NCBI RefSeq assembly: GCF_019464535.1
Contig: NZ_CP080507.1
Span: 2,220,001-2,252,000 of the forward strand
Direction: 5' to 3'
DNA: 32,000 bases
DNA from: Horticoccus luteus
GTDB taxonomy: Bacteria; Verrucomicrobiota; Verrucomicrobiia; Opitutales; Opitutaceae
The notes below the pieces were generated by a model. That model was not told where the DNA came from. It saw only the letters and a list, made by a program, of their open reading frames with translations, and did no database searches. A program made the position numbers and the translations under genes. This document shows positions 2,686 through 14,011 of the stretch, piece by piece. How positions within the stretch are numbered: the first letter of the stretch is position 1; every line of letters starts with the position of its first letter.

Positions 2686-3950
2686 GCCGTGGCTGCTCCG
2701 GCGGCGTAACGTCGCGAAAGGAAGAGTTCCGTAAGGTATTTCAGCGAATAGATGGCGGAATATGCCATGACCGCGTGGCGCGCAGCCCAGCCGGAGCCGG
2801 TGCGTCCCGCCCAGAGAAAGACGCCGACCATCACCACGATGAGCGCGGATTGAATGACGAGGTCCGCCGCCTGTTTCTGTGCGATGTAGAACATAGAGCC
2901 GAGCGGACTCGCGATGAAGCGCAGCGCGAGGGCCGGGATGAGGTAGCGCACGTATTCGCCGCTTTCGCGCCAAGCCGAGCCGAAAATCAGCTCGAATGCC
3001 CACGGCGAGATCCACGCCGCCATCGCGAAGGCCGGCAGCGATGCCCAGAAGAGCTTCGCGAACGTACGGTTGAAGAGCGTGAGGCAATTGCCCTCGCGGG
3101 CATAAATCTCGCTCGCCTGCTGCCGGAAGACATCCGCCACCGACTGCGCCACCACCGTGAGCGGCAGGTTGGCGATGCGCTGCGCGAGCGAAAACCACCC
3201 CAGCGTGCTGGCGCCAAACAGCGAGGAGAAGAAAAACACGGGCACCTGCCCTGCCCCGGATTCGACGACTGCCGAACCCAGCGAATACTGAGGAAAGCGG
3301 CGTTGCGCTCCCGCCTGCCCCTGCAAGTCCGCCCAGCGCAAGGCGCGTATCTCCGAGCCGGACTCGCGCCAAATTTTCACGGCCAGAAACACAGCGCTGA
3401 CGAACAGTCCGAGCAACAGCCCCCCGATCAGGCCGAATTGCATCCAACCAAGCAGGCCAAAGGCTACGTTGAAGACCGCCGCGAGCACGCTCCGCAGCAC
3501 GTTGTTCGTCGCGATCGTGGCGAACGCCTTGCGGCGCAGCAGCCAATAGCGCGCACCGGTGGCGAAGCCCGTTACAAACATCGCCGCCGGCACCAGCCAC
3601 AGCCACTTCTTCAAGCGCGGTTCCTTGAGCACGTCCACCAACCAGTCGCCACACAGGGCGGTCAGCGGCACCAACGCTACCGCGATACCGAGTGCCACGA
3701 GCGTGCACACTCCCAGCAGCGCCAGGCCGTGGCGATCCTCCGCCGGCAGCGTAATCGCGTATTCGTAGCGCGCGCAGATCACCGACGTCAGCAAGGCCGT
3801 GATTGACACGAAGATCGCATACACGCCGAAGTCCGCGGGCGTGTAGAGCCGGGTCAGCACCGGCGACACCAAGATGGTGATCGCCTGGGCTGCAACCGTG
3901 CCGATCAGAATGACCAGCGCGTTGCGGGAGAACTGTCCGAGCTTGATCAA
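2682..3950 (-). CDS. wzx: Oligosaccharide/O-antigen flippase (Wzx, MOP superfamily)
   Basis: 422 aa, strongly hydrophobic multi-span protein with a Wzx-like N-terminus (FSRNALVILIGTVAAQAITILVSPVLTRLYTPADFG). The start codon in the track frame is TTG at 3950, overlapping the upstream stop (TTGA). Confidence 0.8.
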   Translation of the reverse strand: MIKLGQFSRNALVILIGTVAAQAITILVSPVLTRLYTPADFGVYAIFVSITALLTSVICARYEYAITLPAEDRHGLALLGVCTLVALGIAVALVPLTALCGDWLVDVLKEPRLKKWLWLVPAAMFVTGFATGARYWLLRRKAFATIATNNVLRSVLAAVFNVAFGLLGWMQFGLIGGLLLGLFVSAVFLAVKIWRESGSEIRALRWADLQGQAGAQRRFPQYSLGSAVVESGAGQVPVFFFSSLFGASTLGWFSLAQRIANLPLTVVAQSVADVFRQQASEIYAREGNCLTLFNRTFAKLFWASLPAFAMAAWISPWAFELIFGSAWRESGEYVRYLIPALALRFIASPLGSMFYIAQKQAADLVIQSALIVVMVGVFLWAGRTGSGWAARHAVMAYSAIYSLKYLTELFLSRRYAAGAATA

Positions 3951-5056
3951 GCGCGCGCGTAGAACGCCTTGATTTGCTCGACCACGTAGCCGATCATCTC
4001 ATCCGTCATCTCCGGATAAATCGGAAGCGAGAGGATGCGCGACTGATGCGAGTAGGCCACAGGGAAGTCCGCCGGCTTATGGCCCAGATAGGCGTAGGCC
4101 TTCAGGAACGGCAGCGCGACCGGATAGTTCAACACCGTGGGCACGCCGCGCTCCTTGAGGAAGGCCATCAAGGCATCGCGTTTCTCCGTGCGGATCACGT
4201 AGAGGTGATACACATGGTCCCGGCCGGGGGCAACGGGCGGCGTGATGACGTCGCCCACGCCGGCAAGGAGCTCGTTGTAGCGGGCGGCGATGCGCTGGCG
4301 CGCCGCGGTCCACTTCTGCAAGTGCGGCAGCTTCACGTTGAGCACCGCCGCCTGCAGGCCGTCGAGTCGGCTGTTGATGCCCTCGATCACATGTTCGCCC
4401 TTGGTGAGGCCGCCGTGGCGGGCATAGCACGTCATCTGGCGCGCGAGTTCGGCGTCGGAGGTCAGGATTGCGCCGGCGTCGCCGTAGGCCCCGAGGTTCT
4501 TGCCGGGATAGAACGAGAAGGTAGACACCCGGCCGAACGTGCCGGTGAGTTTGCCTTGAAAACGCGCAAGGTGCGACTGCGCACAGTCCTCCATCACCCA
4601 CAGATTGTGTTGTTTCGCGATCTCCATGATCGGGCCCATGTCGGCCGCCTGGCCGTAGAGGTGCACCGGGATGATGCCCTTCGTGCGCGACGTGATCATC
4701 GCGGCGATCAACGTGGGATCGATAGTGAACGTGTCCCTGTCGGTATCGACGAACACGACGCGGGCGCCGGTCTGCGTGATGGTCTCGGAGGTCGCGATCC
4801 ACGAGTGTGCGGTCGTGATGACCTCGTCTCCCGGCCCGACTCCCATGATCTTCATGGCGATGTAGAGGGCATCCGTGCCATTGGCGCACGAGATGCAATG
4901 CGGCACACCGAACAATGCGGCATAGTCCTGCTCGAATTTGTCGACGAAGGGACCGCGCACATAGGCGCTGTCCCGGATGACCCGGGCAATGGCCGCATCC
5001 ATCTCCGACTTAATCGTGAGATACTGGGCGTGTAGGTCGACGAACTGGATTTTCAT
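3947..5056 (-). CDS. wbpE: DegT/DnrJ/EryC1/StrS-family PLP aminotransferase (WbpE-like)
   Basis: 369 aa from MKIQFVDLHAQY. The PLP-lysine context FSFYPGKNLGAYGDAG is present. The ATG at 5056 overlaps the upstream stop (ATGA). The gene is flanked by WbpD-like and WbpB-like genes. The track ORF extended to 5326 is an upstream stop-free run. Confidence 0.88.
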   Translation of the reverse strand: MKIQFVDLHAQYLTIKSEMDAAIARVIRDSAYVRGPFVDKFEQDYAALFGVPHCISCANGTDALYIAMKIMGVGPGDEVITTAHSWIATSETITQTGARVVFVDTDRDTFTIDPTLIAAMITSRTKGIIPVHLYGQAADMGPIMEIAKQHNLWVMEDCAQSHLARFQGKLTGTFGRVSTFSFYPGKNLGAYGDAGAILTSDAELARQMTCYARHGGLTKGEHVIEGINSRLDGLQAAVLNVKLPHLQKWTAARQRIAARYNELLAGVGDVITPPVAPGRDHVYHLYVIRTEKRDALMAFLKERGVPTVLNYPVALPFLKAYAYLGHKPADFPVAYSHQSRILSLPIYPEMTDEMIGYVVEQIKAFYARA

Positions 5057-5556
5057 GACGAAACTTCGGATGCGGATGAGAGGGCGCGCAGGAGCTGCGC
5101 GGGATTTCCAACGTAGATGCCGGCCTCGGTGATGTCCTTCGTGACAACGGCGCCGGCACCGATGACGACGTGGTCGCAGATGCGCACCGGCAGGATCGTG
5201 GCGTTCGAGCCGATGCTGACGTGGTGGCCGATCGTCGTGGAGCGCCACTGCGTCTTGTCGCCGCGGGCCGGCCCGCCGGTGGCGAACGTGTCGTTGATGA
5301 ACATGACGCCGTGGCCGATGAAGCAATCGGTGCCGATCGTGACGAGTTCGCAGATGAACGCGTGCGACTGCACCTTAGTGCGGGCGCCGATCTGCACATC
5401 CTTCTGGATTTCGACGAACGGTCCGATGAATACGCCCTCACCGATCTCGCAGCCGTAGACGTTCACAGGTTCGACGACCGTCACATTTGCTGCGAAGCGA
5501 ACGTTGACGATGCCACTTTGGAAACGGCGGGCAGGGGCCGAGTTGGGCGTGCTCAT
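5053..5556 (-). CDS. wbpD: Left-handed beta-helix (hexapeptide) N-acetyltransferase (WbpD/WlbB-like)
   Basis: 167 aa with repeated hexapeptide pattern (IGEGVFIGPFVEI.., IGHGVMF, IGSNATI, IGAGAVV). It sits between the oxidoreductase and the aminotransferase, as in wbpB-D-E. Confidence 0.85.
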   Translation of the reverse strand: MSTPNSAPARRFQSGIVNVRFAANVTVVEPVNVYGCEIGEGVFIGPFVEIQKDVQIGARTKVQSHAFICELVTIGTDCFIGHGVMFINDTFATGGPARGDKTQWRSTTIGHHVSIGSNATILPVRICDHVVIGAGAVVTKDITEAGIYVGNPAQLLRALSSASEVSS

Positions 5557-6659: not shown

Positions 6660-7202
6660 TTACGCCGGCGCTGGACCGAGGAGGGTTTTCAGGATCGGCA
6701 GCAGGAGCCACATCTGGCGGCGCCAGGTCTCCAGCAACTTCACCTGATCTTCCGAAAAAGCCGCTCCCGCCGCATCCGGCGTCGCTCTCGCCAGCTCCCG
6801 CAATCGCGCCATCCGCGACTCGTCCGCGCTCACCAGGGGCTCCACTTTTTCCCGCAGGATGCCACTCACCAGACGCCGCAGCCGCGTCTCCGGCCAAAAC
6901 AGTTCCCGTCGATCCCCCGAGGTCCCTGCACTCCGCACCGCCCCCAGCGATTGCAACAACCGCAACCCCTGGCTCGCCGAGCCTTTGCTGATGTCCAGCC
7001 GTTGCGCGATGTCCGTGAAACCCAACGGCACCGGCGACGCAAACAGCAGCCCGTAAATCTGCCCCACCGACCGCGGGATCCCCACCACCCCCACCAAATC
7101 CGTGAAAAACTCCCCGCACGCCTGCTCGAACTCCGGAGACACCACCGCGCTCGCGTCGCTCGGACGCACAGCTTCAGCAGTTTCATCAGGCAGCAGTTTC
7201 AT
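6660..7202 (-). CDS. GbsR/MarR-type winged-helix transcriptional regulator
   Basis: 180 aa from MKLLPDET (ATG at 7202). The winged-HTH core GIPRSVGQIYGLLFASPVPLGFTDIAQRLDISKGSASQGLRLLQSLGAVR is typical of COG1510/GbsR-like regulators. Same strand as the sugar operon and about 100 bp upstream of it. Confidence 0.7.
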   Translation of the reverse strand: MKLLPDETAEAVRPSDASAVVSPEFEQACGEFFTDLVGVVGIPRSVGQIYGLLFASPVPLGFTDIAQRLDISKGSASQGLRLLQSLGAVRSAGTSGDRRELFWPETRLRRLVSGILREKVEPLVSADESRMARLRELARATPDAAGAAFSEDQVKLLETWRRQMWLLLPILKTLLGPAPA

Positions 7203-7318: not shown

Positions 7319-7547
7319 GACGATCAACGACTAATGCTCATCGAATACCTGCGTCCCGCCCATTCGTGTGCATTCGCGTCCATTCGTGACTTAAATGAGC
7401 TATTTCACAGAAGGTAACAGAGGTTTCACGCTTCTGCCCCATCTGTGTTCATCTGTGTCCATCTGTGGTTAAAAATGCATTTTCGATCTTCGCCCCAGAG
7501 ATCACGGAGAGCCCAACCCGAGTTCACGGAGTAAACCTCAAGGCCCC
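7319..7547. repeat. One copy of the composite repeat unit (modules a-b-c-d-e)
   Basis: The modules occur in this order: GATCAACGACTAATGCTCATCGAATACC; 3x phased CATTCGTG; TTTCACAGAAGGTAAC; 3x phased CATCTGTG ending GGTTAAAAATG; CTTCGCCCCAGAG..CACGGAG..GAGTTCACGGAG. The same module order recurs at 11240-11346 and 12440-12644. Confidence 0.85.
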
Positions 7548-7799
7548 GAAGGGTTGGTGTTGGTCGCCGGAGGCTTCATCGTGGCGACCAGAGGGTTTGC
7601 GTTAGTCGCCGGAGGGTTCGTGTTGGTCCCCGGAGGGTTAGTGTTTGTCGCCCGAGGGTTTGTCGTGACGACCGGAGGGTTAGTGTTGGTCGCCACGAGG
7701 TTAGTGTTGGTCGCCGGAGGGTTGGTGTTGGTCGCCGGAGGGTTTGTGTTGGTCGTCAGAGGCTTTGTCGTGGCGACCGGAGGGTTAGTGTTTGTCGTC
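7548..7799. repeat. 21-bp tandem repeat, 12 units (consensus GGAGGGTTAGTGTTGGTCGCC)
   Basis: I parsed 12 contiguous 21-mers. Units 2, 6 and 11 are a variant (..GTCGTGGCGACC) whose GGCGACC is complementary to the GGTCGCC of the majority units. The repeat is stop-free on both strands. The minus frame reads TNTNPPA heptads. Confidence 0.9.
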
Positions 7800-8107
7800 A
7801 CACGCAACCTCGTAAGGCTCCCGACGCTCATCGCGCCACCCACTTGCAGTTAACCGCCGCTTTTCACCGACTCTCCCGCCCGCGCATGCACATCCATCGC
7901 GCGAAATGAGCGGTTTATATTCCGGCCCGTTTACCGCGACGGCCCCAATCTTCGCACCGTTTTTAACAGGAGGTAACGAAGTGAAGGAAGAGCCCAGGCC
8001 TTCCGAGCGTCCGAGCCGACGCCAAGAGAAAAGTGCAGATTCTCGATCCCTGCGTTGGGTTAGCGAATAACGATCAACGAGTAACCCTCAGCGGAACACC
8101 GCTTCCC

Positions 8108-8864
8108 CATCTGTGCTCATCTGTGTCCATCTGTGGTTAAAAATGCATTTCGCTCTTCGCCACAAAGGCGCCCCAGCCTATTCGTGTCGATTCGTGTCCA
8201 TTCGTGGTAAAAAAAGCATTTCACAGAAAGTAACGCAGGTAAGAAAGAAGCACTCGGCTCCATACGTTCAACTAACGAATAGCGATCAACGAACACCGAT
8301 TCACGCGTCTGCCAATCCGTGTTAATCCGTGTTCATCTGTGGTTAAAAATGGTTTTTGTTCTTCGCCACAGAAGCCCCCCACTCATTCGTGTCGATTCGT
8401 GTCCATTCGTGGTTAAAAAAATAAGAGTATTTCAAAGAAAGTAACGCAGGTAAGAAAGAAGCGCTCGGCCACGTGCGTTCGACTCACGAGTAACGAACAC
8501 CGATTCACGCGTCTGCTAATCTGTGCTCATCTGTGTCCATCTGTGGTTAAAAATGGTTTTTGTTCTTCGCCACAGGAGCCCCCCACTCATTCGTGTCTAT
8601 ACGTGTCCATTCGTGGTTAAAAAAATAAGAGCATTTCACAGAAAGTAACGCAGGTAAGAAAGAAGCAGCGGCCACGTGCGTTCGACTCACAGTAGCGATC
8701 AACGAACACCGATTCACCCGTCTGCCAATCCGTGTTCATCTGTGCCCATCTGTGGTTAAAAATGGTTTTTGTTCTTCGCCACAGCCCCCCCCCACCCATT
8801 CGTGTCGATTCGTGTCCATTCGTGGTTAAAACAAAAGTATTTCACGTGTTCATCTGTGGTTAAC
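8108..8864. repeat. Head-to-tail tandem array of about 205-bp composite units (about 3.7 units, with a degenerate partial unit upstream from about 7960)
   Basis: Unit starts are at 8108, 8314, 8518 and 8727 (spacing 206, 204 and 209). The anchor CATCTGTGGTTAAAAATG lies at 8128, 8334, 8538 and 8747. The whole unit is conserved, not just short repeats. Confidence 0.9.
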
Positions 8865-8885
8865 GTCAGTCTCGTTCAGTCGAGT

Positions 8886-9485
8886 TTAGCGTAAATCAGC
8901 GTGATGAGCGGGAGAACTCCTGCCCGCCGCCCCCAAGTCGCTCAACGCAATCGCACCGTGCCAGCCGCGCTGCACATGCACAGCCCCCAGTTGAAAGCCG
9001 CTTTGCGGGAAACTCGCCGGCATATCGACCAGCACGATCTCTTTCAGCCCAAAGTCCGCCGCGCGGATGTCGCGCAACCGGGCCTTCGTCCACACGTGAT
9101 TGATGGTGAGCAAAAACACGACGTTGTCGGCGTGTTGCATCGCGTGTTGGAGGAAACGCCGGATCTCGCTCCAAGGCGGGTTGGTGATGATCCAGTCAAA
9201 CGTGTCCGTGCACGCGAAAAAGTCGCGCCCCGCCTTGATCTCCGTCCAAGCGACGCTCTCCCCTGCGCGGGCTCGCCGCTGCCCGCCAAGCCGGCCGTTC
9301 GCACGGCTGTCCGCCGTGGCGCCCCGCAGATGCGCGCGGAGGGCGCGATAAAAATTCCCTTCGCCGCGGCACGGTTCCAGAATGCGCCCCCGCGGCTGGA
9401 AATGCTGCACCAGCCGGCGGGCGAGTGCCGGAGGCGTCTGCACATCGTCGTTGCTGACGTAATCGCGATTGGGCTGGAGATGCAT
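8886..9485 (-). CDS. Small gamma-class (Eco57I/TaqI-like motif order) N6-adenine DNA methyltransferase, orphan
   Basis: 199 aa. Motif X DVQTPPALARRLV, motif I ILEPCRGEGNF and motif IV ITNPPW occur in that order. A 25-aa Arg/Gly/Ala-rich insert lies between motifs I and II. No recognisable large target-recognition domain and no adjacent endonuclease. Confidence 0.65.
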   Translation of the reverse strand: MHLQPNRDYVSNDDVQTPPALARRLVQHFQPRGRILEPCRGEGNFYRALRAHLRGATADSRANGRLGGQRRARAGESVAWTEIKAGRDFFACTDTFDWIITNPPWSEIRRFLQHAMQHADNVVFLLTINHVWTKARLRDIRAADFGLKEIVLVDMPASFPQSGFQLGAVHVQRGWHGAIALSDLGAAGRSSPAHHADLR

Positions 9486-9670
9486 GAGGTCGGGGTGCGC
9501 AAATACCGCCCCACCGCGTCGCCTTTGGCAAGGCCGCCCACGTCGCTCTCCGTTCGCTTATAAGAAGCCTCCAGGCTCCTTCGCCTTGGTCTCGGCGCTC
9601 GTCGAGCACCGGTGCGCTCGGTGTGAGAGCGCTTAATTACGCCGAGTAAACGGGCCCCGCGCCGCTCCAT

Positions 9671-9707
9671 AAAAAAGCCCGACCGCGCTGGCCGGCGCGA
9701 TCGGGCT
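9671..9707 (-). terminator. Rho-independent terminator downstream of the 129-aa ORF
   Basis: On the minus strand: AGCCCGATCGCGC-CGGCCA-GCGCGGTCGGGCT (13-bp stem with one mismatch) followed by TTTTTT. It starts 19 nt after the stop codon at 9726. Confidence 0.8.
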
Positions 9708-9725
9708 GCCTGTCACTCGCGGAGC

Positions 9726-10115
9726 TTAAGCCGCCGCGGGCGTCTCGTCAGGAGTGTTCTCCTCCGAGGCTGTATCGGTTTGCGATGGCCGGCGCGCATC
9801 CTTGCGTTTGCCGCCTGCCTTCTCATAGGCGTCACTGTTCCGTCCATACACGGCGCCGACGGCGGCGAGCATACGGTCGGACCAATCGGCCAGTTTGCGT
9901 TCCGCCACCAGGAAACGCGAGCGCGCTTCATCGGTGCCGGACAGCAACGTATTATACGTTCCGAGTTTCGTGCGCGCATCGCTGATGACGGCACGGTAGG
10001 CGGCGAGCGTGAGCTCACCTCCGAGTTCCAGCGGATCGGCGATCGAGGTGATCGCCGCCGCGCGGGCTTCGGCCCGGTCGAGATCGACCGAGCGCATTTT
10101 CTTCATTCTAGCCAT
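9726..10115 (-). CDS. Hypothetical protein, 129 aa, predicted all-helical with a charged Ser/Thr/Glu/Pro-rich tail
   Basis: ATG at 10115 preceded by GGGGATTGGGGTAAGT. A strong terminator follows. GC-rich third positions. No family recognised. A truncated paralogous 3' end lies at 10546-10665. Confidence 0.6.
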   Translation of the reverse strand: MARMKKMRSVDLDRAEARAAAITSIADPLELGGELTLAAYRAVISDARTKLGTYNTLLSGTDEARSRFLVAERKLADWSDRMLAAVGAVYGRNSDAYEKAGGKRKDARRPSQTDTASEENTPDETPAAA

Positions 10116-10545
10116 ACTTACCCCAATCCCCGGGGCGGAGGGTCGAGGTTCTGACTCAGAGTGAGCCAGTTATCTCCTCAACGGATTAATGTCGTGAGTC
10201 CGAAGTAGCAACACGTCAAACGATTATAACGGAATACTTATCGACGGGTTATTATCCATTTCGGCCGACGCATACCCATGCTTAAAAATGGGTTCACTTT
10301 CGAACGCCAGAACGCGTCGGCGGTATGTTTTGAACGACGCCCCCACCTCCGCGGTCTCTACAAGCCCTACCCAAGGGCTTCGAAGGGCTTCAAAGCACGT
10401 CGGATCACTCGGGAGCACGTGGGAGCGCGTGAGAGAAATCGGGCAGACCAGGCAAGGGGATAGCTAGGGCTTGGCAAGGGCATGGGTAGGGCTTGGTAAG
10501 GGCTCGACAAGTAAACGACCGATGTTAACGGTGCGGCCGCATCTG

Positions 10546-10665
10546 TCAGATGGCCGTCTGAGGGGTGTCCGGAGCTTTCTTTCTTGAGGAGGTTTCGGTT
10601 TGCGATGGTCGCGGCGGGTGCCCTCGGGTGCCCGCCGCGCTTCGTTTCCGCCCCTGGCGTCCGAT
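10546..10665 (-). pseudogene. Relic 3' end of a paralog of the 129-aa ORF, truncated by the repeat family
   Basis: The minus frame reads ..GRKRSAAGTRGHPPRPSQTETSSRKKAPDTPQTAI*, compared with ..GGKRKDARRPSQTDTASEENTPDETPAAA* in the intact gene. The shared DNA core TCGGTTTGCGATGG occurs at about 9775 and about 10594. Upstream, the frame runs straight into repeat module CGATCTTCGCCACAG. Confidence 0.55.
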
Positions 10666-10713
10666 CTTCGCCACAGAACGCACCGGGATTTCAAGCCGAG
10701 TCCCCCGCCGATT

Positions 10714-10819
10714 CTTCAACCACGAATAAACACGAACGGACACGAATCCGAGCCAGCGTTAGGCTGACCGACTCCACCGGATTTCATTCGTGTCTATTCG
10801 TGTCCATTCGTGGTTAAAC
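10714..10819. repeat. Imperfect 106-bp palindrome (about 34-bp arms), 5' CTTCAAC ... GTTAAAC 3'
   Basis: The left arm CTTCAACCACGAATAAACACGAACGGACACGAAT pairs with the right arm ATTCGTGTCTATTCGTGTCCATTCGTGGTTAAAC. About 29 of 35 positions pair, and the mismatches recur at about 10-bp intervals. Near-identical copies lie at 10967-11071 and 12131-12243. Confidence 0.85.
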
Positions 10820-10966
10820 TAAAACTACTTCCGAGAAGGTAACGGAGGTCACGAAAAAGCAGGCCACATCGGGTATCTGTGAGCATCTGTGGTTAAAAAA
10901 TGCCTTTCTACCCTCTCCACAGAGTCCACGGAGGCGCGATCCGAGTTCACAGAGCAACTGCCGATT

Positions 10967-11071
10967 CTTCAACCACGAATAAACACGAAGGGACACGAAT
11001 CCGAGCCACATTAGGCTGACCGACTCCACCGGATTTCATTCGTGTCTATTCGTGTCCATTCGTGGTTAAAC
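10967..11071. repeat. Second copy of the imperfect palindrome (105 bp)
   Basis: Same arms and same loop (CCGAGCCA..TTAGGCTGACCGACTCCACCGGATTT) as the copy at 10714-10819. Confidence 0.85.
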
Positions 11072-11390
11072 TAAAACCGCTTCACAGAAGGTAACGAAGT
11101 CCACGAAGAAGCAGGCCACATCGGGTATCTGTGAGCATCTGTGTCCATCTGTGGTTAAAAAAATGCCTTTCTACCGCCACCACAGAGTCCACGGAGATCC
11201 AATCCGAGTTCACGGAGAGTCCGAGTCTGGCTCTCCCCGTTTGGTTACGATCAACGATTAACGCTCATCGAATACCGGCGTCCCGCACTTTCGTGTCTAT
11301 TCGTGTACATTCGTGGTTAAAACCTTCCGACTATCTGTGGTAAACCCCGTCGCATCACTCGCGCCAAGCACCGTCGCGAAGGACAGTCGC

Positions 11391-11765
11391 TCAGTTGAAA
11401 AGTGCGACGAGCGCTGCGAGGTGCGCATCGTCGTGCTCTATTTCCACGCCATGCTCCCAAGCGCAGGCCGCAATCAATACGTCCGCCCCGGGCACCGTGA
11501 GTCCGCTCGCCCGGGCCCGCCGCGCCAGTTCGCGCGAGCGACTCCACACGGCGTCCGTCGTCGCCAAAAGGGTAATATCGGCCTCCAAGGCCTCCATTTG
11601 CTTGCGCTCCGCCGCCCCGCGCAGCCCGTTCCATAGCTCCAACCGCACGAAATCGCACCACCCGGCTTCCCCCGTTTGCATGAGGGCCTGTACACGGACC
11701 CGCACCGCGACATCTCCATCCCGGCGCAGAGCGTCAATCCAACTGGACGTGTCGATGAGCTTCAA
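11391..11765 (-). CDS. vapC: PIN-domain ribonuclease toxin VapC
   Basis: 124 aa with the N-terminus (M)KLIDTSSWI containing the conserved Asp, plus further acidic residues (LELW, GADVLIAA, EHDD). TTG start 3 nt after the vapB stop. Confidence 0.85.
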   Translation of the reverse strand: MKLIDTSSWIDALRRDGDVAVRVRVQALMQTGEAGWCDFVRLELWNGLRGAAERKQMEALEADITLLATTDAVWSRSRELARRARASGLTVPGADVLIAACAWEHGVEIEHDDAHLAALVALFN

Positions 11766-11768
11766 GGC

Positions 11769-11972
11769 TCAGTCGGTCTCCCGCATCCGGTTCAGGTCGT
11801 TGCGTGTCAACATATCCTGGAACGTGCCCATCCGGGCCGCGAGGCGGGTCAAACGTTGCCGCCGGTTGAAATCCGCGACCGCCAGGCTCACTGCCTCCGT
11901 CTTGGTTTTCGCGCCAGTGTGACGAATCGCTTCCGCCAGCTCATCCTCGGGAAGGTCAATGGTCGTCTTCAT
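11769..11972 (-). CDS. vapB: VapB-family antitoxin (DUF2191-like)
   Basis: 67 aa, MKTTIDLPEDELAEAIRHTGAKTKTEAVSLAVADFNRRQR, the typical VapB signature. The track ORF extended to 12191 runs into repeat sequence and is not credible upstream of this ATG. Confidence 0.85.
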   Translation of the reverse strand: MKTTIDLPEDELAEAIRHTGAKTKTEAVSLAVADFNRRQRLTRLAARMGTFQDMLTRNDLNRMRETD

Positions 11973-11990
11973 GCTTCTAAAATGACCCCA

Positions 11991-12005
11991 ATTCGGCATC
12001 CGAAT
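11991..12005 (-). promoter_or_regulatory. Palindrome ATTCGG-N3-CCGAAT upstream of vapB (putative autoregulatory operator)
   Basis: Perfect 6-bp arms lying 19-33 nt upstream of the vapB ATG, next to a TTGATT hexamer on the minus strand. Type II TA operons are commonly autoregulated at such palindromes. Confidence 0.35.
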
Positions 12006-12077
12006 CAAGGGTCTTTCGCTGCAATCCTCGATCATCCCCCCAGGCGTAGCTGGGCGGTTAAGAGTCCAGTTCATCCA

Positions 12078-12644
12078 CTCTTCGCCCAGAGTCCACGGAG
12101 GCAAACTCCGATCTGGTCCTACCGCCAATTCTTCAACCACGAATAAACACGAACGGACACGAATCCGAGCCAGAGAACAAATCACGTTCACGGGATTTCA
12201 TTCGTGTGTATTCGTGTCCATTCGTGTCCATTCGTGGTTGAACTAAAACCGCTTTACAGAAGGTAAAGAAGCCCGCGCTCACGTGCGTTCGGCTCACGAA
12301 TAACGAGTAACGAACACCGATACACGCGTCTGCCAATCCGTGTTCATCTGTGGCCATCTGTGGTTAAAAAATGCCTTTTCAACCGTCGCACAGAACCCAC
12401 GGACGACCAATCCGAGTTCACGGACTGAGTCTCGATTCTCGCTCCGCTCGTTTGGTTACATTCAACGATTAACGCTCATCGAATACCGGCGTCCCGCACA
12501 TTCGTGTATATTCGTGTCCATTCGCGGTTAAATAGGTATTTTACAGAAGGTAACGGAGGTCACGAAGAAGCGCCGACAGTGGTGCTTGGCTGTTCCCTAG
12601 CCGTCTTATCTGTGTAAATCTGTGTCCATCTGTGGTTAAAAAAC
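12078..12644. repeat. Composite repeat array C (about 2.5 units, including a third palindrome at 12131-12243 ending GTTGAAC)
   Basis: Contains the same modules as arrays A and B: CCACGGAG, TTCAACCACGAATAAACACGAACGGACACGAAT, 4x CATTCGTG, ACAGAAGGTAA, ACGAGTAACGAACACCGA, CATCTGTGGTTAAAAAATG, and GATTAACGCTCATCGAATACCGGCGTCCCGC. Confidence 0.88.
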
Positions 12645-12685: not shown

Positions 12686-14011
12686 TCAACCCATCGTCCG
12701 CGTCGCTTCGACCGGGGCCGCGATCCCGCTGCTCATCGCGCGCTCCTGTTCCACGCGCAGCCGCGCGGCGTTGCGATGTGCGTCAAAGTTTTCCTCCACC
12801 CATTTTCTGCCCCCCGCGCGCAGGCGCTCGCACAACACATCATCCGTGGCGATCCGCCGTAGCGCGGCCACCCATGCCGACGGCTGCTCCACGTCGGCGA
12901 TCAACCCCGTCACTTCATCCGTGACCGCCTCACGGGTCCCCGCGACCGGCGAACTCACCACCACCACGCCGATCGACATCGCCTCCGGAATCACGTTGGG
13001 CAACCCGTCGCGGTCGCCACTCGGGGCGATCACGCCCGTGTGCAACAACGCATCGGCCCACGAGAGCTGATCCCACACCTCGTGGTGCGGCAAATGGCCG
13101 GTGAACGTCACCTGCGCGCCGATGCCGAGTTCACCCGCCGCCCGGTCGAGGGACGCCCGCAACGGCCCTTCTCCCACGATGCGCGCCTCAAATTCAATCC
13201 CCGCAGCGCGCAAGGCCGCGTAAACCCGCAACTGGTGTTCCAAGCCCTTTTTCTCCACCAGCCGCGCGACGCATACCAAGTGCAGACGCCGCCGCGTGGC
13301 CCGCAAACGTTTGAATTTCGGCAACACGTCGAGTCCGCGCCGGATGCACACGATGCGCTCCGCCGGCCCGCCGCGCGCCACGAGCGCCGCCCGCGCCATC
13401 TCCGTCGAGGTATGCACAAACGCCGCGCCCTGCAGCTTCTCCCGCAGCCACCAGTCGCCGCCATGCTCAAACAAATCGTAGGCATGCGCCGCGGCGCTGT
13501 AGCGATGCCCATCGATGCGCCACAAAATCCACGCCGCCGTCGCGGGCGCGCCGCCCCACGCCGCATGCACGAGGGCCGGCTGCAAGCGGCGAAAATGCCG
13601 CGCAAACACACACGCGAAACCGGCACCCAGCATGTTCTCCCAGAAATTCAGCCACGACGGCGCCCGCCGCGTGCACAACCCCCGCAGCAATTCGCGCAAC
13701 ACCTCCGGCCGCCGCCACGATTCATACGGGATCAGCCAGACCAACGTGCACAGCCGCCACTTGTTGAACCGCGTGACCGGCAGGCCCCGAAATGAGGTTT
13801 GCCCGCCCCACATCGAATAGAGGCGGAGATCCGCGCCCTGCGCGCGCATGGCGACGATCTCGCGCTGGAGAAACGTCTCCGTGGACTTCGGAAACGTAGT
13901 GAACAGGTAGGCGACGGTGCGGTTGCGCGAGGACAAGCCGCCACGTTCTAGCCGCCGCCGCCCAAGCGCCAAGCGCGAAGCGCGCGCGTTCACGGTTCTC
14001 GCGCCCTCCAA
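12686..14011 (-). CDS. GT4-family glycosyltransferase (WcaL-like)
   Basis: N-terminal VAYLFTTFPKSTETFLQREI and C-terminal GT-B signature VARLVEKKG...GEGP...GLPNVIPEAMSIGVVVVSS..GTREAV.D..TG. The start is uncertain: the track start is TTG at 14011, and an in-frame GTG lies at 13993. Confidence 0.8.
   Translation of the reverse strand: MEGARTVNARASRLALGRRRLERGGLSSRNRTVAYLFTTFPKSTETFLQREIVAMRAQGADLRLYSMWGGQTSFRGLPVTRFNKWRLCTLVWLIPYESWRRPEVLRELLRGLCTRRAPSWLNFWENMLGAGFACVFARHFRRLQPALVHAAWGGAPATAAWILWRIDGHRYSAAAHAYDLFEHGGDWWLREKLQGAAFVHTSTEMARAALVARGGPAERIVCIRRGLDVLPKFKRLRATRRRLHLVCVARLVEKKGLEHQLRVYAALRAAGIEFEARIVGEGPLRASLDRAAGELGIGAQVTFTGHLPHHEVWDQLSWADALLHTGVIAPSGDRDGLPNVIPEAMSIGVVVVSSPVAGTREAVTDEVTGLIADVEQPSAWVAALRRIATDDVLCERLRAGGRKWVEENFDAHRNAARLRVEQERAMSSGIAAPVEATRTMG

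Follow-up and report, generated by a model that had tools for sequence, protein, structure and literature searches.

Repeat clusters of Horticoccus luteus may be the gene-less form of a widespread inverted-repeat element that carries a predicted nuclease gene

Four repeat clusters lie between positions 7319 and 12644 of the window that we analysed (by which we mean the whole 32,000-nucleotide stretch of DNA) from Horticoccus luteus, a member of the Opitutaceae. On balance we lean towards the view that these clusters are the gene-less solo form, similar to MITEs or BIMEs, of an inverted-repeat element that elsewhere carries a nuclease gene, is widespread and has the look of selfish DNA. Neither an Rfam family nor a paper matching the repeat was found, in keeping with the first-pass annotation of this DNA, which knew of no functional description of the family. 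The clusters are built of modules a to e as follows:

7319-7535 (+): cluster 1, a-b-c-d-e, upstream of a GbsR/MarR-like regulator gene (6660-7202, minus strand)
8047-8865 (+): cluster 2, a' d e b c, then tandem (a'' d e b c); 204-bp unit, 3.5 copies
10660-11345 (+): cluster 3, e b' b c d e b' b c d e a b; two intact hairpin-type elements
12070-12644 (+): cluster 4, e b' b (four words) c a'' d e a b c d

Allowing at most one mismatch, TTCGTGNNNATTCGTG occurs 27 times in the 32-kb window against 0.04 expected, and ATCTGTGNNNATCTGTG occurs 16 times against 0.00 expected, every match to either lying inside 7363-12634 and the rest of the window being free of them. Arrays of period 10 were detected by TRF at each b and d module, and together with the excess of matches this bears out the proposal of a genuine repeat family made of words at an exact 10-bp phase. 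The five modules that the first-pass annotation described were all found where it had placed them, and the pseudo-peptides NHEWTRIDTN, NHRWAQMNTD and FVSIRVHSWLK occur in the open reading frames that it had named; its dismissal of the frames across the repeats as spurious is supported. The 7-bp period that it saw in module a exists but is weak, with TRF scores of 31-40. Its picture of an assembly from five independent modules needs revision, since the modules are present but the arrays are built up from 30-nt arms in inverted pairs. One such arm occurs in two word variants, the modules b and d, and a regex scan of the window returned 19 forward and 3 reverse canonical copies of it:

7362-7391 (+): forward arm, b type, degenerate tip GTGACT
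7441-7470 (+): forward arm, d type (ATCTGTG words), tip GTGGTT
8109-8138 (+): forward arm, d type
8180-8209 (+): forward arm, b type, tip GTGGTA
8315-8344 (+): forward arm, mixed ATCCGTG/ATCTGTG words
8385-8414 (+): forward arm, b type
8519-8548 (+): forward arm, d type
8589-8618 (+): forward arm, b type, one ATACGTG word
8728-8757 (+): forward arm, mixed ATCCGTG/ATCTGTG words
8798-8827 (+): forward arm, b type
10718-10747 (-): reverse arm b', partner 10786-10815, loop 38 nt
10786-10815 (+): forward arm, b type
10875-10894 (+): forward arm, d type, only two words
10971-11000 (-): reverse arm b', partner 11038-11067, loop 37 nt
11038-11067 (+): forward arm, b type
11127-11156 (+): forward arm, d type
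11289-11318 (+): forward arm, b type
12135-12164 (-): reverse arm b', partner 12200-12239; 33-nt arms, 91% complementary
12200-12239 (+): forward arm, b type, four words
12336-12365 (+): forward arm, mixed ATCCGTG/ATCTGTG words
12500-12529 (+): forward arm, b type, last word ATTCGCG
12608-12637 (+): forward arm, d type

The three b' arms are perfect reverse copies of b, and each forms with the next b a 33-nt inverted repeat enclosing a loop of 37-45 nt. Of the 22 canonical arms, 19 point forward, an asymmetry for which our model accounts by tandem duplication only. The remaining modules consist of words in reverse orientation, so that forward and reverse arms alternate along the arrays, and are themselves reverse-oriented arms that are diverged or lineage-specific:

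7398-7435 (+): module c, purine-rich reverse-type words (CACAGAAGG TAACAGAGG ...); diverged reverse arm before d
7963-7991 (+): module c, isolated copy
8220-8248 (+): module c
8431-8459 (+): module c
8635-8663 (+): module c
10829-10857 (+): module c
11081-11109 (+): module c
12253-12281 (+): module c, truncated
12540-12568 (+): module c
7483-7535 (+): module e, reverse arm of a second word type (CCACAGAG / CACGGAG), tip CTTCGCC
10662-10701 (+): module e, partial
10907-10958 (+): module e
11170-11220 (+): module e
12074-12111 (+): module e
12378-12428 (+): module e
7320-7357 (+): module a, ACGATCAACGAnTAAnGCTCATCGAATACC..., heptad-phased reverse-type words before b
8070-8107 (+): module a variant
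11247-11284 (+): module a
12458-12495 (+): module a
8259-8310 (+): module a'', ..ACGAATAGCGATCAACGAACACCGATTCACGCGTC.., 7-nt phased words before d; TRF 8274-8300, period 14
8470-8514 (+): module a''
8680-8722 (+): module a''
12280-12333 (+): module a''; TRF 12296-12314, period 7

The arrays are therefore chains of head-to-head arms that have been amplified in tandem, most visibly at 8109-8831, where TRF detects a period of 204 bp in 3.5 copies (score 1067). The order of modules is cyclic and fixed, (a) b c (a'') d e (b'), and the arrays are thus a higher-order repeat and not free mosaics. Between clusters of the window the arms are far better conserved (79-100%) than modules c and e (60-83%).

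The arm is specific neither to this genome nor to PVC bacteria. An exact 19-mer of it was found in at least 120 stretches in species genomes with unrelated flanks, and the matches listed include Verrucomicrobiota, Planctomycetota, Acidobacteriota, Armatimonadota, Nitrosomonas and others, the taxonomy of many of them depending on MAG binning. Loci chosen by GxxExxY protein homology alone contained 123 arms, versus 0.4 in shuffles, and outside the 30 nt of these arms no sequence information was found. The arm comprises three decamers ATYNGYGTYY at an exact 10-bp spacing with GTGGTT at the outer tip of the last; within the decamer A1, T2, G5, G7 and T8 are near-invariant, and positions 3, 6, 9 and 10 are pyrimidines. 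Three words were counted in 215 arms and two in 169, and GTT directly followed the arm in 260 of 389. The usual pairing is AACCAC...loop...GTGGTT: of 137 adjacent pairs of arms 67 were reverse-then-forward, 57 of these with a gap of at most 150 nt. Only b and d are universal; the sampled loci of other genomes held no match to modules a and c and one to module e, whose word type makes a full hairpin in locus L113.

The arm family is also tied to one gene family. Of 73 GxxExxY (PDDEXK_3) genes in an unbiased sample of metagenomes, 42 were bracketed by inverted arms versus none of 73 shuffles. Their start codon is often placed within the left arm, so that the product, a predicted PD-(D/E)XK nuclease of about 125 aa, begins with MDTNxHE. 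The window holds neither a GxxExxY gene nor a remnant, and the gene is present in 5 of 120 arm-selected loci among the matches listed. GxxExxY protein similarity did not track the type of arm word (permutation p about 0.1), so no signal of nuclease-arm co-evolution was seen. The perfect reverse b copies, the multi-phylum spread and the GxxExxY link were all absent from the first-pass annotation.

With genes called by a home-made gene caller, the arms are extragenic (11 of 169 inside called genes), enriched in convergent gaps (30/108 vs 87/452 of all gaps) and depleted in divergent gaps (11/108 vs 75/452). Their orientation follows no rule (64 tips point to the end of a gene and 44 to the start of one), and in most loci the neighbours are ordinary housekeeping genes. 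No enrichment of transposases was found near the arms.

We propose that the complete element would consist of two inverted 30-bp arms (AACCAC...GTGGTT) separated by a loop of roughly 10-110 nt, and that in the full-length form the loop would hold the predicted nuclease gene. The constraint on each arm would lie in its sequence, with three putative recognition sites one helical turn apart along the same face of the double helix, and not in a base-paired stem of RNA; candidates for the binding protein are a host factor and the predicted nuclease whose gene the arms enclose. The element would spread by transposition or homing, with solo copies as its non-autonomous, MITE-like form. In the window, where forward b and d arms alternate with reverse arms of which only the three b' copies are intact, the resulting chains would then have been tandemly duplicated into a BIME-like mosaic, local growth probably proceeding by unequal recombination or slippage.

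It is unlikely, in our estimation, that the arms instead act at the level of RNA, as a transcript stem serving as an RNase III site, mRNA stabiliser or insulator in the manner of REP elements or rRNA intervening sequences, and sequestering the GxxExxY start codon. That start codon lies within an arm, which implies that arms are transcribed; hairpins also occur inside operons (in L113 between nuoE and the gene that follows it, and in L070, L121 and L122 between Aldedh genes), arms are enriched at gene 3' ends, and cluster 3 with its b'/b pairs folds well as DNA (z -4.7). However, most window arms have no complementary partner, and cluster 2 folds much like shuffled sequence (z -0.5). The arms are not terminator-like, because a T-run precedes the hairpin and an A-run follows it, and they have no Rfam match. 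Between partner arms, agreement above chance is confined to the Y positions 3 and 6; position 4 and spacer positions 9, 10 and 19 match at chance level, without covariation. The mismatches comprise 36 G.U-sense, 32 G.U-antisense and 74 transversions, the commonest kind, which gives no G.U excess on either strand. This pattern argues for a constraint on sequence, consistent with protein sites on double-stranded DNA and not with RNA pairing: the word positions are fixed, whereas position 4 and the spacers are free and non-complementary between partners. The comparison with protein-binding sites and iterons made by the first-pass annotation would thus survive in its first half, the replication-control sense of iterons being unsupported.

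We are equally doubtful that a conserved DNA-binding protein of the cell (nucleoid-associated, regulatory, or acting in replication or segregation) recognises the decamers, which would then be kept for the benefit of the cell as in iterons or centromere-like repeats. Exact 10-bp spacing with three sites per arm and the invariance of 5 of 10 decamer positions across phyla would fit such a role, as would purifying selection at an orthologous Opitutia locus, where the non-coding right arm is kept although neighbouring bases are unalignable. A conserved host factor could also account for the cross-phylum identity, a counterpoint to our preferred explanation. The arrays sit where GC skew weakens or changes, yet no dif-like site was found when looked for. 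Against a host function, position and orientation relative to genes are not fixed, copy number is highly variable with diverged copies, the element is scattered over many intergenic regions beside unrelated genes, and a relative carries no arms in the orthologous region. The arms are moreover closely tied to a single family of small predicted-nuclease genes that is horizontally transferred.

Far less probable is an integron-like cassette array (attC, or a CALIN without integrase) in which the hairpins are recombination sites between small mobile cassettes such as VapBC or a methyltransferase-like ORF. The element ends, AAC...GTT, do resemble the R''/R' boxes of the imperfect inverted repeats of attC, and hairpins part toxin-antitoxin pairs and small genes of unknown function in two loci, the window and Nitrosomonas L009. 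However, most copies adjoin housekeeping genes, no integrase occurs in the window or is enriched in arm loci, cassette genes lie outside the hairpins without a one-gene-one-site pattern, and the bases after GTT are not RRRY in other genomes; attC conserves structure and not sequence, and the arms do the reverse.

We likewise give very little credence to an ordinary REP/REPIN family mobilised by a RAYT (Y1 HUH) transposase, for although the elements are extragenic, paired in inverse orientation and clustered like BIMEs, and L122 has a Y1_Tnp gene 1 kb from its GxxExxY cassette, that gene is preceded by its own GTAG-type hairpin, a different repeat, no Y1 transposase family recurs near arms, the GTAG or CGTC tag is absent, and no match to a known REP/RAYT family, which the first-pass annotation had envisaged, was found. 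Enterobacterial BIMEs and REP sequences share with the arms an extragenic location, alternating orientation, a fixed grammar with other short motifs, variable cluster size, a bias towards the 3' ends of genes and a lack of coding capacity. Yet the REP unit is a short imperfect palindrome and lineage-specific (PMC3733652), in contrast to the non-palindromic phased decamer triplet, which recurs in many phyla and is associated with a PD-(D/E)XK gene instead of a RAYT. REPIN-RAYT systems offer the parallel of an inverted doublet with many non-autonomous copies and a rarer coding partner flanked by the same repeats, but here the doublet encloses a predicted PD-(D/E)XK nuclease of about 125 aa and not a Y1 HUH transposase.

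The solo element in the reading that we favour resembles MITEs such as the Correia elements and BrickBuilt of Porphyromonas gingivalis in being short, non-coding and bounded by inverted repeats; MITEs too are often nested or contain an internal minisatellite, and BrickBuilt has been annotated as spurious ORFs. Unlike MITEs, it has three phased sites per arm and the same arm in many phyla, and neither a target-site duplication nor a DDE transposase partner was found. Free-standing PD-(D/E)XK homing endonucleases such as I-Ssp6803I are encoded by a very small gene embedded in a defined DNA site, much like the predicted nuclease here, although to our knowledge homing endonuclease genes normally lack triple-repeat inverted arms or large populations of empty sites in one genome. 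If the element is homing-like, cleavage of empty sites followed by repair would account for the constant bracketing of the ORF by arms. The repeats of H. luteus look like widespread, undescribed selfish DNA rather than an oddity of one genome.

The repeat region of the window (7319-12644) is made up of four clusters, at 7319-7535, 8047-8865, 10660-11345 and 12070-12644, all of which are intergenic and AT-richer (GC 0.48-0.56) than the surrounding DNA (0.60-0.70). Short minus-strand genes sit between the clusters, and a regulator and a glycosyltransferase gene flank the region:

6660-7202, GbsR/MarR-like regulator, flanking gene
8886-9485, minus strand, 199-aa ORF with an NPPW motif, without Pfam family
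9726-10115, minus strand, 129-aa ORF without family
11391-11765, minus strand, PIN-domain VapC
11769-11975, minus strand, VapB antitoxin
12686-14011, group-1 glycosyltransferase, flanking gene

A Horticoccus luteus (Opitutaceae, Verrucomicrobiota) protein matches the regulator at 100% identity. The ITNPPW motif of the 199-aa ORF is that of adenine methyltransferase motif IV, and this ORF may be a methyltransferase, either orphan or truncated. At 9676-9707 (minus), near this ORF and the 129-aa one, is a strong terminator-like hairpin. The VapC/VapB toxin-antitoxin pair (11391-11975, minus) is intact and lies between clusters 3 and 4. GC skew is approximately 0 up to 6 kb and about -0.06 over the repeat region; from 12 kb it lies between -0.16 and -0.26, despite which the window genes are on the minus strand throughout; a search of the window for dif-like sites gave no matches. 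Directly after cluster 1 lies a 21-bp minisatellite (CCGGAGGGTTAGTGTTGGTCG, ~12 copies, 7546-7797) that also reads as an 84-bp period, yields ~100-aa repeat ORFs (TNTNPPA...) from both strands and falls outside the decamer family. Between the 129-aa gene and cluster 3 there is a short-period block (10373-10504) composed of AAGGGCTTCA (x2.3), AGCACGTGGG (x4) and GGCAAGGGCTT (x5), and CAAGGG words like those of this block also occur near arms in two loci from other genomes (L044 and L087).

The first-pass annotation had resolved the arrays into short-word modules lettered a to e, and all of these were found in the repeat region. TTCGTGNNNATTCGTG (up to one mismatch) gave 27 matches versus 0.04 expected and ATCTGTGNNNATCTGTG gave 16 versus 0 expected, in both cases entirely within the repeat region, while TRF returned a period of 10 at every b and d module and, at 8109-8831, 3.5 copies of a 204-bp higher-order repeat. 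The modules follow a single cyclic order, (a) b c (a'') d e (b'), in which b and d are one object: a 30-nt arm of three decamers (ATYNGYGTYY at exact 10-bp spacing) ending GTGGTT, with differing word variants. A regex scan placed 19 forward and 3 reverse arms in the window, all in 7362-12637, and each of the reverse arms (b') pairs with the next b to form a 33-nt inverted repeat, 85-91% complementary, with a loop of 37-45 nt. Modules c, e, a and a'' are built from reverse-orientation words (CACAGAAG, AACGGAGG, CCACAGAG, CACGGAG, AACGAAC and others), and the clusters are therefore chains of alternating reverse- and forward-type arms. Identity between clusters is 79-100% for the arms versus 60-83% for modules c and e. 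Module e is a separate arm type: at another locus (L113) it makes up a complete inverted pair, and the gene downstream of this pair (3078-3566) probably encodes the NuoE subunit, to judge by a 2Fe-2S_thioredx match when pooled Pfam hits were surveyed. In the sampled arm surroundings of other genomes (830 kb), modules a and c found no match. The number of words per arm also varies, in that the window arm at 12200-12239 has four, and orthologous forward arms of L044 and L101 differ by exactly one decamer (3 versus 4 words), which suggests that word number changes by slippage.

The arm family spans phyla. A scan of one genome per species with the exact 19-mer TTCGTGTCCATTCGTGGTT returned at least 120 stretches, and among the matches listed Verrucomicrobiota were in the majority, accompanied by Planctomycetota, Acidobacteriota (including a closed Terriglobia chromosome), Armatimonadota (a closed chromosome), Hydrogenedentota, Kiritimatiellota, Victivallales, Sumerlaeota, Spirochaetia, Nitrosomonas, Halofilum, Binatia, Methylomirabilota and WOR-3, with the caution that some assignments rest on MAG binning (e.g. 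a contig from a Bifidobacterium bin). Twelve IMG/VR contigs carry the 19-mer, and a BLAST search of plasmids gave no match to an arm query that the low-complexity filter may have masked. What the loci have in common is ~30 nt alone, their flanks being unrelated. By a looser word definition arms held three words in 215 cases and two in 169, and were directly followed by GTT in 260/389. The inverted pair recurs as a unit: 67 of the 137 adjacent arm pairs run reverse-then-forward, 57 of these with a gap of ≤150 nt (looser definition), and the stricter three-word pattern, metagenome loci included, gave 63 reverse-forward pairs with loops of ≤150 nt, whose lengths peak near 10, 35 and 85-105 nt.

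Several loci have features of their own. In a Nitrosomonas MAG (L009, 1-3420) the architecture is the same as in the window, with an ORF-less tandem array of ~170-bp arm units (1-720) followed by hairpins that separate a RelB/ParE-like pair, a DUF4160 ORF plus the next ORF, a 79-aa ORF and a gene of the GxxExxY nuclease family; its left arms carry CACTAAT and its right arms ATTCGTG, giving a systematic T/C mismatch. In five Verrucomicrobia MAG loci (L024, L034, L042, L081 and L088) the motif GTTCCGGCTAAGG flanks both sides, ~14 nt outside the GGTT tip, and it lengthens the palindrome in some Verrucomicrobia. In a distant relative, whose regulator is 58% identical, the corresponding region is free of decamer arms and carries a (GAGAGCT)n heptad array instead; there (L215, 8631-8824) ~25 copies of the heptad and an MNT/HepT toxin-antitoxin pair occupy the space downstream of the orthologous regulator. 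Heptad repeats also follow an arm in L099. An acidobacterial module of ~125-220 nt (74-83% identity) adjoins the reverse arm, with copies at:

L046, 1880-2100
L109, 5147-5345
L101, 3872-3997
L082, 531-715
L044, 5730-5859

This module is a lineage-specific companion, analogous to a, c and e of the window.

The constraint on the arm is on sequence and not on pairing. A position matrix built from protein-selected loci found 123 arms versus 0.4 in shuffles. Positions A1, T2 and T8 of each decamer are 93-100% conserved, though not imposed by the search pattern, positions 3, 6, 9 and 10 are pyrimidines, position 4 is free, and information content is zero directly outside the 30 nt. Partner arms agree above chance only at the Y positions 3 and 6 (0.90-1.00 observed versus 0.5-0.78 expected), and agreement at position 4 and at spacer positions 9, 10 and 19 is no better than chance in short-loop pairs. 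Mismatches between the arms that bracket GxxExxY genes comprise 36 G.U on the sense strand, 32 G.U on the antisense strand and 74 transversions. The lack of complementarity at the free positions and of a G.U bias speaks against a selected RNA or single-strand stem. Against shuffled sequence, strong folding is confined to the b'/b cluster (z -4.7), cluster 2 doing no better than its shuffles (z -0.5); Rfam gave no gathering-score matches in the window and none on hairpins in 18 loci, and the sub-threshold hits are apparently fortuitous (mir-425, E 0.04). The observations are consistent with a sequence-constrained motif present in two inverted copies, each offering three sites spaced by one turn of the helix, as might be read by a protein on duplex DNA, and to this extent they support the likeness to arrays of protein-binding sites drawn in the first-pass annotation.

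Genes were called by amino-acid composition, a method that retrieved those window genes with Pfam support, and of 169 three-word arms only 11 fell inside a called gene. Gaps between convergent genes are enriched in arms (30/108 versus 87/452 for all gaps) and gaps between divergent genes depleted (11/108 versus 75/452), while tip direction obeys no rule (64 towards a gene end, 44 towards a gene start). The neighbours in the Pfam survey are housekeeping genes, among them IspF, formyltransferase, NuoE-type thioredoxin-like 2Fe-2S ferredoxin, amidase and ABC transporters, and all-against-all ORF clustering of 120 loci detected no recurrent transposase or integrase near arms. Extragenic position, housekeeping neighbours and the lack of a recurrent transposase or integrase together are the behaviour of REP/BIME- or MITE-like extragenic repeats. 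A role as promoter is disfavoured by a sigma-70 scan (1 site versus 1.9 expected) and the absence of any orientation preference towards gene starts, and one as intrinsic terminator by a T-run that precedes the hairpins and an A-run that follows them. At L044 (3878-5824) an ISAzo13-like DDE transposase ORF (4119-5366) lies between reverse and forward arms 1.9 kb apart, with sequence rich in CCACGAAGG words upstream; this gene is probably a secondary IS inserted into an element.

GxxExxY (TIGR04256; Pfam PDDEXK_3) is the only small gene family recurrent near arms (5 loci of 120), and in L070 and L010 a reverse and a forward arm exactly enclose its ORF. The best 120 homologues of the L070 protein are nearly all equal in length, and all 20 inspected start with MDTNxHE or a close variant, some behind a short N-terminal extension. 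MDTNxHE is the translation of CGA ATG GAC ACG AAT G.A CAC GAA, which is arm sequence, and the start codon of GxxExxY thus lies inside the arm. The best L070 homologues are orthologous and come from a single conserved locus of Opitutia (Aldedh - GxxExxY - PTR2/Aldedh), where the arm is conserved: across five genomes the non-coding right arm retains the decamer pattern and the adjoining bases are unalignable. For an unbiased test, metagenome contigs were scanned with an N-terminally trimmed GxxExxY alignment, giving 73 loci with enough flank. An inverted repeat scoring ≥15 brackets the ORF in 42 of these versus 0/73 shuffles (shuffle maximum 13), and the bracketing repeats in all 42 are decamer arms. 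Word types vary between loci (ATTCGTG, ATCTGTG, ATCCGTG, ATCTGCG, ATTCGCG, ATCAGTG, ATTCACG and others), and the two arms of one locus share theirs. GxxExxY protein similarity does not track arm word type (p about 0.1), which argues against a simple model of the nuclease recognizing the arm.

The GxxExxY family is annotated without known function and with "multiple transfers" between divisions (PMC3424549). The PD...D-x-K residues are invariant in our alignment, and an AlphaFold model of moderate confidence (pLDDT 67) matched PD-(D/E)XK proteins such as Cas4 SSO0001 and lambda exonuclease, though weakly (no E below 0.004); by sequence there was no match among solved structures. No GxxExxY gene was found in isolate phages, nor any ORF or remnant of one in the window, whose copies are solo arms only.

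In architecture the arms resemble BIMEs, REPINs and MITEs, yet each has defining features that are absent here. The likeness to BIMEs lies in extragenic repeat units that alternate in orientation and are joined by other conserved motifs, an architectural parallel that does not imply homology. With MITEs they share terminal inverted repeats (the 57 close reverse-forward pairs, and three in the window). The GxxExxY genes bracketed by the same arms at 42/73 loci might encode an autonomous partner, although GxxExxY does not count among the known transposases; a DDE transposase partner is lacking. Unlike MITEs they also lack a target-site duplication: the flanks outside AACC...GGTT are not direct repeats and, where similar, extend the palindrome (T-run ... 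A-run). REP units are short imperfect palindromes (stem 5-13 bp) with a GTAG or CGTC tag (PMC3733652), whereas the arm consists of three direct decamers with neither internal palindrome nor GTAG/CGTC tag, and RAYT (Y1_Tnp) genes were absent from the window and not recurrent in the 120 loci. At L122 a RAYT-like Y1_Tnp gene (2840-3393), preceded by a GTAG-tagged REP-type hairpin, lies 1 kb from a GxxExxY cassette; this hairpin belongs to a different repeat family within the same genome.

The toxin-antitoxin genes of the window and L009 raised the idea of an integron attC/cassette array, which was dropped on account of the housekeeping neighbours in the Pfam survey and the covariation test: there is no integrase in the window and none recurs in the loci, sequence is conserved with variable positions not complementary, and the bases following GTT depart from RRRY across loci. 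Iterons are direct repeats beside a rep gene or origin to which the initiator binds, and the likeness to them drawn in the first-pass annotation does not hold for replication repeats, there being no rep gene or DnaA-box cluster and the arms being dispersed in many intergenic regions of many genomes. A CRISPR array, in which identical repeats of 24-48 nt alternate with unique spacers of similar length, is contradicted by intervals that are themselves repeated modules at irregular spacing (70-290 nt), and the familiar consensuses of the DnaA box, parS, dif, sigma-54/ECF promoters, CsrA sites and UNCG tetraloops, compared by eye, do not fit the invariant positions. A full-text literature search using the sequence itself, the names GxxExxY and PDDEXK_3, and MITE combined with phylum names yielded no description of the family.

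The favoured reading, somewhat more likely than not, is that of a selfish extragenic element: a protein would bind the arms, solo arm pairs would be its non-autonomous form or its homing sites, and in the window the clusters would have grown through nested insertion and tandem duplication. A less likely but still substantial possibility is that the decamer arms and the GxxExxY gene make up a mobile or homing element of a class not recognized before. It would be a ~430-bp cassette whose sole protein, a ~125-aa PD-(D/E)XK nuclease, would recognize three helically phased sites in each inverted arm; large populations of empty (solo) arm pairs would serve as non-autonomous copies or homing sites, and the whole would have spread horizontally over at least ten bacterial phyla.

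For annotation, masking arms could remove false ORFs and correct GxxExxY start sites. If the proposal is true, one 30-bp DNA signal would account for unusual intergenic repeats by the thousand, together with spurious small ORFs, in Verrucomicrobiota, Planctomycetota, Acidobacteriota and further little-studied phyla, and the element would rank among the smallest known protein-coding selfish elements. It would also be a marker of DNA exchange across phyla and might yield a compact nuclease module that binds DNA sequence-specifically. For the large GxxExxY/PDDEXK_3 family this would provide a concrete context, that of a nuclease encoded between its own probable recognition sites.
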